Source: Escherichia coli (GTDB lineage Bacteria; Pseudomonadota; Gammaproteobacteria; Enterobacterales; Enterobacteriaceae). From it: a stretch of 64,000 bases of DNA. Below, piece by piece: positions 40,828-53,441 of this stretch (its first letter is position 1; every line of letters starts with the position of its first letter). The stretch lies in NCBI RefSeq assembly GCF_003334335.1, contig NZ_QOWQ01000007.1; one strand, given 5' to 3'. The translations under genes and the position numbers were made by a program. The notes under the pieces were generated by a model. That model searched no databases. It was given only the letters and a program-made list of their open reading frames with translations, and had not been told where the DNA came from.

Positions 40828-41085
40828 TGAAAATCTGACCGGATGTAACGGTTGATAAGAAAATTATAACGGCGGTGAAGATTCGTGGCGAAAGTAATTT
40901 GTTGCGAATATTCCTGCCGTTGTTTTATATAAATAATCAGAATAACAACGAGTTAGCAATAGGATTTTAGTCAAAGTTTTCCAGGATTTTCCTTGTTTCC
41001 AGAGCGGATTGGTAAGACAATTAGCGTTTGAATTTTTCGGGTTTAGCGCGAGTGGGTAACGCTCGTCACATCGTAGGCATGCATG

Positions 41086-41124
41086 CAGTGCTCTGGTAGC
41101 TGTAAAGCCAGGGGCGGTAGCGTG
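41086..41124 (+). promoter_or_regulatory. JUMPstart element with ops site (GGCGGTAGCGTG at 41113-41124) upstream of the O-antigen cluster
   Basis: 39-bp 'cagtgctctggtagctgtaaagccaggggcggtagcgtg'. Confidence 0.88.
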
Positions 41125-41346
41125 TCCAGTTTTAATAAAAAACGGCAGATAATTATCGGTTATATAGTCAAAACAATAAAAGATATTTATTAAATATTAA
41201 CGGGGTTGGCTTTAGTGATAAAGTGAGGAAGAACTCAGAAAATGAGAGCATATATTAGAAGTTAGCAGTTTACTCAAATTTTAAACATTTATGTTAACAT
41301 ATGTTTCTGATGAAAATTGTGAGTTTGAATCAATTGCAAAATTATC

Positions 41347-42714
41347 ATGCTATCAAAGGACCATAATTTGTCACATATAAATGACCCTAATAAGTTCTGG
41401 CTTAAGTTAATCCCCCCTCAAATTTTATCAAAAATATCCAATTATAATGGATTATTGGCTGCTATCAATAATAGTGGATGGCTTATCTTTGATAAATTAA
41501 TTCGACTGGCTCTTGGGTTTATTGTTAGTGCATGGATTGCGCGATATCTTGGGCCGAATGATTTTGGTATACTAGCATATGTTCTTGCATATTTGGCCTT
41601 TTTTCAAACTATATCTGTTTTAGGTATGGATGGAATCATTGTTAGGGATATAGCGAGAGATAAAGATAAAGCCGGTGAAGTATTAGGAACTGCATTTATA
41701 TTAAGATTAACAGTTGGTTTTATTTGTTGGATATTTTCAATCATTGGGATGATTATATTTAATGGAATCCATGATGAGGTTGTGTATATTACGGCAATTA
41801 CAGGAGGTCTATTATTATTCCAATCCGTCGATACAGTAGATCTTTGGTTTCAGAGTCAAAGTGAAAGCCGGAGGACTGTTATTGCGAAATTGACAGCTTA
41901 CTTATTATCTAGCAGTGTAAAAATAATATTGATATTAAATGAAGCACCATTAATAGCATTCGCAACAATAATGTTATTTGAAACTGTGGTTTCAGCTGTA
42001 GCATTAGTTATTGCTTATAGAAAATATCCTTGTTATCAATCTTGGGTATTCTTAAAACAACGAGCATATAAAATTATTAATGAGTCCTGGCCCTTTATCT
42101 TAAGTGGCCTTTCAATCTCAATATATATGAGAATAGATCAAATCATGATCAAGGAGTTTATGGGGGATTCTGAACTGGGAATATATGCTGCAGTACTACC
42201 TTTTGCAACACTATGGTCGTTTATTCCAATGACACTATCAATAAGCTTGGCACCTTTTGTTGCAAAAACAAAACAAAAAGGGGAAAGAGAATATTGGACC
42301 TGTTTATATACAATCTTTAGAGTGTTTGCAATTATTGCTTGGTTTGTGGCAATACCTATATCACTAATGTCGAATCATATCGTTTCAATACTTTTAGGTG
42401 CTAAATATGAAGCTGGATCTGTGGTTTTATCTATAATGGCATTTGTAAATATTTTTATAAACATGGGCATAGCACAAAGTTTATGGATATTAAATGAAGG
42501 TAAATCTAAAGTTAGCTTGTATAAAACGATGATAGGTGCAGTTGTATGTGTTGCTGCTAACCTTATTTTGATTCCGAAATATGGGCTTATAGGGGCTTCT
42601 GTAAGCGCGTTATTGGCACAATTTACATCATGCATACTAAGCAATTTTCTCATATGCAAAAAAATATTTTATCTACAAGTTAGAAGTTTGTTTTTTATCA
42701 AGATGAAATTTTGA
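41347..42714 (+). CDS. wzx: O-antigen flippase Wzx (MOP family)
   Basis: 455-aa AT-rich polytopic membrane protein; 'GWLIFDKLIRLALGFIVSAWIARYLGPNDFGI' typical of Wzx N-termini; first gene after JUMPstart; start codon uncertain. Confidence 0.75.
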   Translation: MLSKDHNLSHINDPNKFWLKLIPPQILSKISNYNGLLAAINNSGWLIFDKLIRLALGFIVSAWIARYLGPNDFGILAYVLAYLAFFQTISVLGMDGIIVRDIARDKDKAGEVLGTAFILRLTVGFICWIFSIIGMIIFNGIHDEVVYITAITGGLLLFQSVDTVDLWFQSQSESRRTVIAKLTAYLLSSSVKIILILNEAPLIAFATIMLFETVVSAVALVIAYRKYPCYQSWVFLKQRAYKIINESWPFILSGLSISIYMRIDQIMIKEFMGDSELGIYAAVLPFATLWSFIPMTLSISLAPFVAKTKQKGEREYWTCLYTIFRVFAIIAWFVAIPISLMSNHIVSILLGAKYEAGSVVLSIMAFVNIFINMGIAQSLWILNEGKSKVSLYKTMIGAVVCVAANLILIPKYGLIGASVSALLAQFTSCILSNFLICKKIFYLQVRSLFFIKMKF

Positions 42715-42802
42715 TTAGTGAATAAGATATAGCGTTGCATATTTGTAATGAAATATAAATTAGATTAATCAGTAATATTGTTTTCAAAATAGGGATAATG
42801 CT

Positions 42803-51069: not shown

Positions 51070-51815
51070 TGCGAATTTCTATTATCACAGCTACTTATAA
51101 TAGTGAAAAAACTCTCCTTGATACATTACTTTCTCTAGAAAAGCAAACGCATCCAGATATTGAATATATAGTTGTAGATGGAGCATCGAAAGATAATACA
51201 ATTAAGCTGATTAAGAGTAATTGTACAAAAGTTTCAAAAATCATTTGCGAACCCGATAAGGGCATTTATGATGCTCTGAATAAAGGTATTCAAGCAGCTT
51301 CGGGTGATGTTATTGGTTTTTTACATTCTGATGACTTATTTGCTTATGATGATGCTATTGCAGATATAGCAAAAACATTTGAAAGTACAGGATGTGATGC
51401 TATTTATGGCGATTTGGAGTACGTTGCCCAAAATGATACGACTAAACGTATTAGATTATGGAAAAGTGGTTCATTTAGTCGTTTCAAGATGAAAGTGGGT
51501 TGGATGCCGCCACACCCATCATTTTATATGAAACGCGAATGTTATAGTCAGTTTGGTAGTTTTTCTTTAGATTATCGAATATCTGCTGATTATGACTCAT
51601 TATTACGATATATTTTAAAACAACGTATTTCGATAGCATATTTACCAAAAGTCTTAGTGAAGATGCGTGTTGGTGGAATTAGCAATCGTTCAGTATCTTC
51701 AATGGCCAAGAAGTCAATGGAAGACATTCGTATTATGAAACAGAATGGTATTATCTGGCCACTTGCTTTAGCGTATAAAAATATATCCAAACTTCCTCAA
51801 TTTATTAAAAAGTAA
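51069..51815 (+). CDS. WcaE-like GT2 glycosyltransferase (candidate fucosyltransferase)
   Basis: 248 aa, same length as WcaE and alignable by eye ('SIITATYNSEKTL...YIVVDGASKDNT...GIYDALNKGI' vs WcaE '[13 protein letters not shown]...[12 protein letters not shown]...[10 protein letters not shown]'). Confidence 0.7.
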   Translation: MRISIITATYNSEKTLLDTLLSLEKQTHPDIEYIVVDGASKDNTIKLIKSNCTKVSKIICEPDKGIYDALNKGIQAASGDVIGFLHSDDLFAYDDAIADIAKTFESTGCDAIYGDLEYVAQNDTTKRIRLWKSGSFSRFKMKVGWMPPHPSFYMKRECYSQFGSFSLDYRISADYDSLLRYILKQRISIAYLPKVLVKMRVGGISNRSVSSMAKKSMEDIRIMKQNGIIWPLALAYKNISKLPQFIKK

Positions 51816-51820
51816 TCATC

Positions 51821-53245
51821 ATGTTAAATGTTAAAAAAATCATTAACGATAGTAATATTGCGTTCGGTACTAGTGGTGCTCGCGGTTTAGTGATCGATTT
51901 TTCCCATGATGTTTGTGCTGCGTTCACTCATGCGTTTCTTTCTGTTATTGATGACAAATACAATTTTAGTAAAGTTGCCTTAGCCATTGATAACCGCCCA
52001 AGTAGTTACGAAATTGCTCAGGCATGCGCGTATGCTATAAAACAACATGGATTCGAGGTTGAATATCATGGTGTAATTCCGACTCCTGCATTAGCTCATT
52101 ATTCGATGCAGAAAAACATTCCCTGCATAATGGTCACAGGGAGTCATATCCCTTTTGATCGTAATGGCTTAAAATTCTACAGACCTGATGGTGAAATCAC
52201 TAAAGAGGATGAGCTCGCAATTATAAATAGTGAGTATACATTTTCGCCTGTAGGTGAATTACCTCATCTTGAAACAAGCACTCAAGGTGCAGACTACTAC
52301 CTCGAACGTTATGTTTCTCTTTTTAATCCCGAGATTTTAAAGGGGAAAAGAATAGGGGTATATGAACATTCTAGTGCGGGACGCGATTTATATGCTCCTC
52401 TTTTTAATCAAATGGGTGCAGAGGTCATTTCCCTCGGTAGGAGTGATGAGTTCGTTCCGATTGATACGGAAGCAGTAAGCGATGAAGATCGTATACTTGC
52501 AAGAGAGTGGTCTAAAAAATATAATCTTGATGCTATTTTCTCAACAGATGGCGATGGTGATCGTCCTTTAGTTGCCGATGAAAATGGTGAATGGTTAAGA
52601 GGCGATATTCTGGGACTACTTACTGCTATTGAACTTAATATCAAGGCGTTGGCTATTCCAGTGAGTTGTAATACAGCAATTGAAGAGTCTAATAAATTTG
52701 CAAGTATACAACGAACGAAAATAGGTTCTCCTTATGTAATTGCAGCATTTGCAGATCTTGCTAAGCAATTTGATTCAGTCGCTGGTTTTGAAGCTAATGG
52801 TGGTTTTCTCCTTGCCTCCGATTTACAAATTAATGGCAAGGAATTAAAATCGTTACCTACACGAGATGCTGTGTTACCAGCATTAATGCTCTTAATAGCT
52901 TCTCGCAATAGTACTATTTCTCAACTGATTAATAATCTTCCTCAGCGATTCACTTGGTCAGATAGAGTTAAAAACCTCCCTTCAGATTCAAGTCAACAAA
53001 TTATAAAAAATGCCATATCGTCACCCAATAATTTCTTTAATAGTTTAGGTTATGAATCATTATCCTGTTCCGCTATTGATGAAACGGATGGTGCAAGATT
53101 TACTTTAAATAATGGTGATATTATACATCTCCGTCCTTCCGGTAATGCTCCAGAACTCCGTTGTTATGCTGAGGCCAGTGATGAAAATCAGGCTAAGCAA
53201 TATGTTACGAATGTGCTGGGAAATATTACCTCTTTGATTTCTTGA
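51821..53245 (+). CDS. manB: Phosphomannomutase-like alpha-D-phosphohexomutase (O-antigen copy, divergent from CpsG)
   Basis: 474 aa; 'TGSHIPFDRNG' active-site loop, 'DGDGDR' metal site, 'FEANGG', 'RPSGNAPELR' phosphate-binding loop. Confidence 0.8.
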   Translation: MLNVKKIINDSNIAFGTSGARGLVIDFSHDVCAAFTHAFLSVIDDKYNFSKVALAIDNRPSSYEIAQACAYAIKQHGFEVEYHGVIPTPALAHYSMQKNIPCIMVTGSHIPFDRNGLKFYRPDGEITKEDELAIINSEYTFSPVGELPHLETSTQGADYYLERYVSLFNPEILKGKRIGVYEHSSAGRDLYAPLFNQMGAEVISLGRSDEFVPIDTEAVSDEDRILAREWSKKYNLDAIFSTDGDGDRPLVADENGEWLRGDILGLLTAIELNIKALAIPVSCNTAIEESNKFASIQRTKIGSPYVIAAFADLAKQFDSVAGFEANGGFLLASDLQINGKELKSLPTRDAVLPALMLLIASRNSTISQLINNLPQRFTWSDRVKNLPSDSSQQIIKNAISSPNNFFNSLGYESLSCSAIDETDGARFTLNNGDIIHLRPSGNAPELRCYAEASDENQAKQYVTNVLGNITSLIS

Positions 53246-53441
53246 TGTTATAGGTTTATCTACGCTTATATGTGTGCGTAGGTTTGATTACACGTAGATG
53301 CCGGTATACAGAATTGAAGAACGGTATTTGTTGCATTAATGAAATTCAGCACTACACACATTCGTGCAACTTGAGATAACATCTCAATCATATTCAAGTC
53401 GCGCATACATCGCGGTGACCACCCCCTGACAGGAGTAAACA

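Follow-up and report, generated by a model that had tools for sequence, protein, structure and literature searches.

The gene cluster that lies between galF and gnd in a contig of Escherichia coli, NZ_QOWQ01000007.1, raises the question of which O antigen it specifies and whether that antigen already has a name. We analysed a stretch of 64,000 nucleotides (nt) of this contig, hereafter the window, in which an O-antigen cluster had been called at positions 40828-53441 by an earlier reading of the letters (the sequence-only reading); the coordinates and gene calls of that reading all held on re-check. Judging from the sequence, we consider it very probable that the cluster is a functional Wzx/Wzy-dependent operon at the galF-gnd locus, that it would direct the synthesis of an O unit with fucose and about five sugars in all, and that it is not one of the classical named serogroups.

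The interval 41347-53245 is filled by 11 open reading frames (ORFs) on the same strand, all of them intact, with overlaps or gaps of at most 88 nt (the coordinates of the features are collected in Table 1). Their order is wzx, wzy, three glycosyltransferase (GT) genes and then gmd-fcl-gmm-manC-GT2-manB, behind a JUMPstart/ops leader. The cluster is flanked by galF and gnd and follows the colanic acid genes, of which wcaM is directly upstream, and the same cluster with the same annotation was found in three RefSeq genomes. The guanine-plus-cytosine (GC) content was 0.53-0.56 in the colanic acid genes, 0.29-0.34 in the region 41000-46500, 0.37-0.42 in the region 47000-53400 and 0.49 in gnd, which bears out the abrupt switch to AT-rich DNA that had been noticed after galF. 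The ops motif GGCGGTAGCGTG of the leader is at 41113-41124, and the ops pattern occurred in 2 copies in the window against 0.12 expected. The presence of the JUMPstart/ops leader implies RfaH-dependent read-through (antitermination) of one long operon. Consensus scans for promoters and terminators gave counts at chance level (53 against 56.9 expected, and 11 against 7.6) and were not used. No gene of the wzm/wzt-type ABC transporters was found among the 11 cluster ORFs.

The product of wzx showed 11 hydrophobic segments and matched NCBIfam models of MOP flippases with scores below the cut-off. An alternative start of this gene (TTG at 41368) gives a protein of 448 amino acids (aa), which is the call made by the Prokaryotic Genome Annotation Pipeline (PGAP) in E. 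coli LR-29-1, a strain from human faeces (Ecuador) to which the window is near-identical. The window comes from a close relative and not from LR-29-1 itself, as it lacks the IS1 that this strain has in yegJ and differs by a few single-nucleotide polymorphisms (SNPs) and indels. The product of the gene after wzx has at least 8 hydrophobic segments and a long loop at about residues 224-331, and UniRef gives its Citrobacter orthologue the name 'oligosaccharide repeat unit polymerase'. The topology, the position of the gene, the naming of the orthologue and weak profile matches together make this protein the putative polymerase, Wzy. The A-run at the 3' end of wzy (44009-44015) is polymorphic in length, being A7 in the window and in a Korean and a Canadian strain that carry the same cluster and A6 in LR-29-1. 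Precisely, A7 gives a protein of 406 aa that ends 9 nt before the next gene, and A6 gives a protein of 410 aa whose TGA overlaps the next ATG; the difference alters the last few residues only, and both forms were seen in many independent contigs.

Between wzy and gmd there are three GT genes, two of which were assigned to their families directly. The GT4 of 336 aa was also recognised through identical copies, in which PF13439/PF00534 were found. As for the 370-aa protein, which the sequence-only reading had counted among the glycosyltransferases, no significant match was obtained in Pfam, NCBIfam or PDB with the single sequence. Its family is large (more than 1,100 representatives at E <=1e-10), and Pfam GT group 1 was matched by 61 of the 80 aligned members, while the profile of the family matched the C-terminal domain of GlgA with an E value of 3e-8. 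The AlphaFold (AF2) model of the protein reached a predicted local distance difference test score (pLDDT) of 95.4 and a predicted template modelling score (pTM) of 0.92, and the top matches of this model in Foldseek were all GT-B glycosyltransferases, with probability 1.00. Family profile, model and fold search thus confirmed it as a GT-B enzyme. The cluster as a whole is therefore supported as encoding four GTs, two GT-A (one of them the enzyme between manC and manB, WfeY, considered below) and two GT-B. In one Logan contig (SRR32022521, locus L012, 2937-5983) the genes for the 307-aa GT and the GT4 are fragmented, which may be due to an assembly or sequencing error or may represent a decaying copy.

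The 3' half of the cluster encodes a complete route to GDP-L-fucose (ManB, ManC, Gmd and Fcl, in this order of action), plus Gmm, and ManB is 99% identical in aa to the OgN5, O159 and O168 copies. Inside this set, between manC and manB, there is a GT2 gene that had been regarded as an odd insertion. This view did not stand: the gene is wfeY and belongs to a module that recurs among O-antigen clusters, OgN5 included, and the manC-GT2-manB junction was found in 131 of 5,426 complete E. coli genomes. The GT2 of the window is identical to WfeY of O168, O159 and OgN5 at 94.8%, 96.4% and 99.2% of aa positions, respectively. The gene wfeY is common to O36, O41, O156, O159, O168 and strain SD2019180 (PMC10606467), and the correlation of structures and genes has credited its product with the alpha-L-Fuc-(1->3)-D-GlcNAc linkage, that is, fucose (Fuc) on N-acetylglucosamine (GlcNAc) (PMC10606467). 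We accordingly predict for WfeY of the window an alpha-1,3-L-fucosyltransferase activity on GlcNAc carried by undecaprenyl pyrophosphate (Und-PP-GlcNAc). The same GT2 had also been called WcaE-like. A resemblance does exist, with 29% aa identity to the WcaE encoded in the window itself, but it is a distant one only. A duplication of wcaE from the neighbouring colanic acid cluster was considered as a source of the gene and ruled out, given this 29% aa identity and the lack of any nucleotide similarity.

These findings support what had been proposed for the cluster, i.e. a Wzx/Wzy-type system with a complete GDP-L-fucose pathway and four GTs, for which a repeat of about five sugars was predicted. 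In the mechanism that we propose, WecA, encoded outside the window, would start the unit by forming GlcNAc-P on undecaprenyl phosphate, and the WfeY orthologue would then add alpha-L-Fuc-(1->3). Three more sugars, derived from housekeeping nucleotide sugars or from GDP-Man/GDP-Fuc (Man, mannose), would be added by the GT4, the GT-B protein and the GT2, either in the main chain or as a branch. Wzx would flip the unit, Wzy would polymerise it under modal-length control by WzzB, and WaaL would ligate the polymer to lipid A-core. The repeat unit is thus a probable pentasaccharide. No acetyltransferase gene was found within the cluster, so that O-acetylation encoded by the cluster is not expected. 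Moreover, there is no gne-type epimerase gene between ugd and wzzB in the window, so that N-acetylgalactosamine (GalNAc) is an unlikely component unless the epimerase is supplied from elsewhere; at the same place, between ugd and wzzB, the locus of an O159 strain (MB06022) carries a gene for an NAD-dependent epimerase, which the window does not have.

Table 1. Position of the O-antigen cluster genes and of the neighbouring features in the window, with the basis of each assignment
Feature	Position	Strand	Basis or remark
Colanic acid (wca) cluster	16764-39759		own ops leader, Wzx, polymerase, gmd, fcl, gmm, cpsB, cpsG
galF, conserved upstream flank	39934..40827	+	LR-29-1 RefSeq annotation; 99-100% aa identity to other E. 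coli galF
JUMPstart RNA element with ops	41086..41124	+	Rfam RF01707, 60 bits against a gathering score of 35
wzx, O-unit flippase	41347..42714	+	PF01943/PF13440; 455 aa from ATG 41347
wzy, putative O-antigen polymerase, 406 aa, TTG start	42803..44023	+	sub-threshold profiles, topology, position
GT2-family (GT-A) glycosyltransferase, 307 aa	44033..44956	+	Pfam PF00535, E 4.9e-7
Divergent GT-B glycosyltransferase (GT1/GT4-like), 370 aa	44949..46061	+	family profile, AlphaFold model, fold search
GT4-family glycosyltransferase, 336 aa, GTG start	46072..47082	+	many GT4 NCBIfam matches, E down to 1e-18
gmd	47100..48224	+	TIGR01472, 587 bits against a cut-off of 415
fcl, GDP-L-fucose synthase	48228..49193	+	NF047922, 548 bits against a cut-off of 500; 100% aa identity to the OgN5 copy
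gmm, GDP-mannose mannosyl hydrolase (Nudix)	49196..49657	+	NF011963, 205 bits against a cut-off of 146; 100% aa identity to the OgN5 copy
manC	49663..51069	+	TIGR01479, 738 bits against a cut-off of 373
wfeY-type GT2, 248 aa	51069..51815	+	GT2 by NCBIfam; same manC-manB position and identity to O168/O159/OgN5 proteins
manB, phosphomannomutase	51821..53245	+	PGAP annotation; PGM_PMM domains in the Citrobacter orthologue
gnd, conserved downstream flank	53442..54848	+	LR-29-1 annotation
ugd, UDP-glucose 6-dehydrogenase, possible supply of UDP-glucuronic acid (UDP-GlcA)	55105..56271	+	annotation transferred from LR-29-1
wzzB, O-antigen chain-length regulator working with Wzy	56418..57395	+	annotation transferred from LR-29-1

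The integrity of these genes bears on another possibility, namely that the cluster is not expressed as O antigen of lipopolysaccharide (LPS), either because the strain is rough or because the polymer is mainly a group 4 (O-antigen) capsule. The A7/A6 variation at the 3' end of wzy and the metagenomic contig with fragmented GT genes are in keeping with it, as is the fact that WaaL, WecA and any group 4 capsule genes would be encoded outside the window. However, none of the 11 ORFs is disrupted in the window or in the three complete genomes, Wzy stays full-length with either A-run (406 or 410 aa), both run lengths recur in many independent contigs, and wzzB is intact downstream. We consider this explanation very improbable.

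With respect to known clusters, the comparison made by the sequence-only reading had been with O157. The O157 cluster is Wzx/Wzy-dependent, uses sugars derived from GDP-mannose and has gmd, fcl, manC and manB as in the window. It adds per (for GDP-perosamine) and has no wfeY between manC and manB. O157 is the wrong reference set, and the right comparators are the clusters with the wfeY module, for which we used O159, O168 and OgN5. The O168 and O159 loci were retrieved as so named by PGAP. The OgN5 locus used for comparison contains the published 650-bp OgN5 amplicon, with wzx (1221 nt) and wzy (1188 nt) as published.

In O159 and O168, gmd-fcl-gmm-manC-wfeY-manB is at the 3' end of the cluster, adjoining gnd, as in the window. 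The module proteins are 95-99% identical, and precisely the pathway enzymes of the window are 96-99% identical to the O168/O159 copies. In their 5' halves, on the other hand, wzx, wzy and two of the GTs are without detectable similarity to the window, the GT4 shows a local similarity of 24-26%, and the gene order differs, since other genes separate wzy from wzx. The O159 wzy of MB06022, a seawater isolate from Galapagos, is annotated as frameshifted (L020, 5088-6102).

The closest comparator was OgN5 (Onovel1 in EcOH; LC177549), known from enterotoxigenic E. coli (ETEC) and from the sequence type 410 (ST410) clone B5/H24RxC, which acquired this type. OgN5 is at the same locus and has the same JUMPstart leader as the window, and the nucleotide identity in fcl-gmm-manC-wfeY-manB is 99-100%, with identical Fcl and Gmm proteins. 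As the module from fcl to manB is shared, a Fuc-(1->3)-GlcNAc stem is predicted for both antigens. The homology runs up to the last position of ops (41124), breaks off there and begins again at the start of gmd (47107), so the type-specific part of the window is 41125-47106, about 6 kb, with wzx, wzy and the three GTs. In this part the OgN5 wzx, wzy and other GTs are unrelated to those of the window (no tblastn match), and OgN5 has two acetyltransferase genes where the window cluster has none. Given that the window type differs from OgN5 in the 5' half only, one half-cluster recombination could switch a carrier of OgN5 to the antigen of the window type.

In Citrobacter sp. T1.2D-1 (GCA_950098555.1) we found all 11 genes in the same order as in the window, between galF and gnd, with a similarly low GC content (0.29-0.35 in the 5' half). 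The Wzx and Wzy alleles of this strain recur in C. amalonaticus and C. telavivensis. Compared with the window, the aa identity of Wzx, Wzy and the three GTs is 61-67% (65% for Wzx, 64% for the 307-aa GT and 67% for the GT4 at this collinear locus), and that of the fucose module is 70-92%. The lengths of the proteins, window and Citrobacter respectively, are 448/447, 406/405, 307/306, 370/374 and 336/343 aa, thus within about 7 aa. On these identities the Citrobacter locus reads as an orthologous, long-diverged version of the cluster and not as its recent donor. The collinearity of the two loci indicates that the arrangement is old and no invention of E. coli.

The junction with the module was examined by sliding identity. 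It is graded within gmd, whose first ~200 bp are 81% identical to OgN5/O168/O159 and have a start of the Citrobacter type, while the rest of the gene is 95-97% identical; from fcl onward the identity to OgN5 is 99-100%. The simplest reading of these data is that a complete cluster was imported and that its fcl-manB part would then have been homogenised with a resident wfeY module (an OgN5-like allele). Instead of this, the cluster could be a hybrid made in E. coli, in which foreign wzx, wzy and three GT genes replaced the 5' half of an OgN5-like cluster through one crossover at JUMPstart and one in gmd. Such a replacement would agree with the limits of the OgN5 homology (41124 and 47107) and with the 99-100% identity of fcl-manB to OgN5, Fcl, Gmm and ManC being identical in some carriers. 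It agrees less with the Citrobacter locus, which holds a complete collinear set with its own gmd, GT2 and manB, and with the 81% identity and Citrobacter-type start of the first ~200 bp of gmd. Since the imported piece evidently carried its own gmd, we favour import and homogenisation and regard the hybrid as unlikely. In fact, both scenarios lead to the same present-day structure and function.

The sequence-only reading had suggested that the type could be rare, and this agrees with its presence in 3 of the 5,426 complete E. coli genomes, where it is 98.0-100% identical to the window. The three strains are of human origin, one each from Ecuador, Canada and South Korea. By comparison, OgN5 is common and accounts for most of the ~130 carriers of the module. 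The window type was also found in scattered draft genomes and isolates and in contigs of human gut metagenomes. Between the Canadian strain and the window the identity is 99.7-99.8% in the cluster, against 95-97% in both flanks; in the Korean strain the contrast is smaller (about 98% in the cluster, 96-97% in the flanks). A cluster more alike than its flanks suggests a recent transfer of the cassette, at least into the lineage of the Canadian strain, and the whole cassette would have moved between E. coli lineages by recombination in the flanking regions. E. coli 38M23CPO015 (L004; Canada), which carries the window-type cluster, is a clinical-screening isolate from stool or rectal swab, and 'CPO' in its name may mean carbapenemase-producing organism. 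In this isolate Fcl, Gmm and ManC do not differ from the proteins of an OgN5 strain, a hint that the two types of cluster have recently exchanged DNA in lineages of clinical relevance.

It remains to be considered whether the serogroup already has a name. In a search of 5.8 billion proteins for relatives of Wzx and Wzy, leaving aside the 90% cluster to which each belongs, a Citrobacter protein (61%) was the nearest Wzy and a flippase of C. amalonaticus (66%) the nearest Wzx; no other E. coli Wzx or Wzy was present among the relatives in this search. The collinear Citrobacter locus described above holds this nearest Wzy, and its Wzx comes about as close as the nearest one. Among the Wzx and Wzy cluster members listed there was no serogroup name, no curated record and no UniProtKB entry: the names were 'flippase' or 'hypothetical protein', with UniParc identifiers only. 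The control proteins behaved differently. Those of O168 and O159 consistently bore names such as 'O168 family O-antigen polymerase', which evidently originate in PGAP BLAST rules, and had links to UniProt entries from the original cluster papers; for the OgN5 Wzy there was a link to a curated entry called 'O-antigen polymerase'.

We also carried out polymerase chain reaction (PCR) in silico with the primers for OgN1, 3, 5, 8, 9, 10, 12, 31 and OSB16, which found no site in the cluster with up to 3 mismatches allowed; the OgN5 primer control gave the published 650 bp. In the references tested (O159, O168, OgN5, nine primer pairs and the protein search), no known O-group matched both wzx and wzy of the window at 97% identity or more, the level at which the sequence-only reading would have taken the serogroup as known. 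NCBIfam was tried as an in-silico O-typer and set aside, as it has no serogroup-specific hidden Markov models (HMMs) for Wzx/Wzy. The O168, O159 and OgN5 controls gave no specific matches there, and for this reason the negative NCBIfam result of the window says nothing on the serogroup. Three strains were rejected as carriers of the same cluster: in SD2019180 the wfeY module is placed at the 5' end and is accompanied by a different wzy/wzx and by capA (PMC10606467), and EPEC001 and EPEC080, of the enteropathogenic (EPEC) group, are both rml-based. The OgN-RKI1-4 paper makes no mention of fucose genes, and a full-text literature search for the three carrier strains or their accessions found none.

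We give an even chance to the following, more specific reading: the cluster would encode an undescribed E. coli O antigen, without reference strain, antiserum, structure or typing allele, orthologous to an equally undescribed antigen of the C. amalonaticus group and having only the Fuc-(1->3)-GlcNAc stem in common with O159, O168 and OgN5; and a single half-cluster recombination could switch the OgN5 lineages (ETEC and the high-risk ST410 B5/H24RxC) to it. Only a little under even, in our estimate, is the chance that the cluster works as described and is already catalogued under a provisional Onovel or OgN name. Ingle et al. 2016 added 38 novel loci to EcOH from genomes of ETEC, atypical EPEC (aEPEC) and GenomeTrakr, consisting of 32 loci of unique arrangement (the 'Onovel' types of EcOH, according to PMC10786849) and six aEPEC variants; these loci were deposited on Figshare and not in INSDC, and would therefore not show in protein names. 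There is also the precedent of Onovel1, which turned out to be equal to OgN5, and dozens of public assemblies, from accessions of 2017-2018 onward (OWD..., RCQ...), carry the window type, so that large surveys could have met it. Set against this are the absence of any name, curated record or UniProtKB entry among the members listed and the negative primers for nine OgN/OSB types. Moreover, no carrier sample seen matches the ETEC ERS numbers of Table S1 of Iguchi 2017, and at 0.06% of complete genomes about 1 carrier would be expected in a survey of 1,547 genomes.

Several points weigh against the interpretation of the cluster as a functional, fucose-containing O-antigen operon outside the classical serogroups. 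The expression, the structure and the serology are all predicted from sequence alone. The profile matches of Wzy are below threshold (TIGR04370 with E 1.3e-5 and 24.4 bits against a cut-off of 40; PF14296 with E 0.07), which is usual for Wzy, a very divergent family. The donor sugars of the three type-specific GTs are not readable from the sequence, and the linkage assigned to WfeY is based on correlation and is not biochemical. As for the name, the 'unnamed' status rests on indirect tests, without the alleles of EcOH, SerotypeFinder or ECTyper; the comparison with named types left out Onovel2-32 of EcOH, the OgN types of the 2020 scheme and the OgN-RKI alleles, and the cluster members listed were 15 of 36 for Wzx and 15 of 50 for Wzy.

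The cluster is thus an O-antigen cluster of the ordinary kind, whose allelic form is rare and appears to be unnamed in public annotation, and it poses no challenge to the current understanding of O-antigen biosynthesis. In practice, serology, PCR O-genotyping and databases that do not have these wzx/wzy alleles would leave carriers untypeable for O or call them Onovel, and the addition of the alleles 41347-42714 (wzx) and 42803-44023 (wzy) would close a small typing gap. The locus is also a clean example of modular O-antigen evolution, in which interchangeable 5' cassettes are joined to one conserved fucose module, that of wfeY, with crossover points at the ops element and inside gmd and with a full orthologue in another genus. 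Glycoconjugate vaccines and antibody therapies directed to O antigens are under development against E. coli lineages, and for these it is of some practical importance that an alternative antigen lies a single recombination from OgN5.

The rest of the window offers a few further observations. The colanic acid cluster has its own GDP-fucose genes, so that two such sets are present within about 25 kb of each other (25779-32572 and 47100-53245), with 70-76% nt identity in gmd/fcl. The aa identities between the O-antigen proteins and their colanic acid paralogues are 80% for Gmd, 73% for Fcl, 50% for Gmm, 59% for ManC/CpsB, 21% for ManB/CpsG and 29% for WfeY/WcaE, and the GC content is 0.54-0.56 in the colanic fucose set against 0.37-0.42 in the O-antigen set; the two sets are paralogues and not copies. 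The second exact ops motif GGCGGTAGCGTG of the window, at 16574-16585 and about 190 nt upstream of wza, is presumably that of the JUMPstart leader of the colanic acid operon. In the intergenic region between wzxC and wcaK there are two direct repeats of about 92 bp (35610-35701 and 35707-35797), 92% identical, which are probably repetitive extragenic palindromes of the REP/BIME type.

Two differences from LR-29-1 were noticed outside the polysaccharide clusters. The diguanylate cyclase gene dgcE (7425-10741, - strand) looks inactivated with respect to that strain: a nonsense change (SNP at 8060; AAG->TAG as read on the - strand) and the loss of 1 nt from a C-run near 10321 (C8 against C9) split it into three ORFs (7425-7883, 8058-10274 and 10304-10741), and this may be either a real pseudogene or a homopolymer or sequencing error. 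Conversely, yegJ (2426-2887, - strand) is intact in the window, whereas in LR-29-1 it holds an IS1B insertion.

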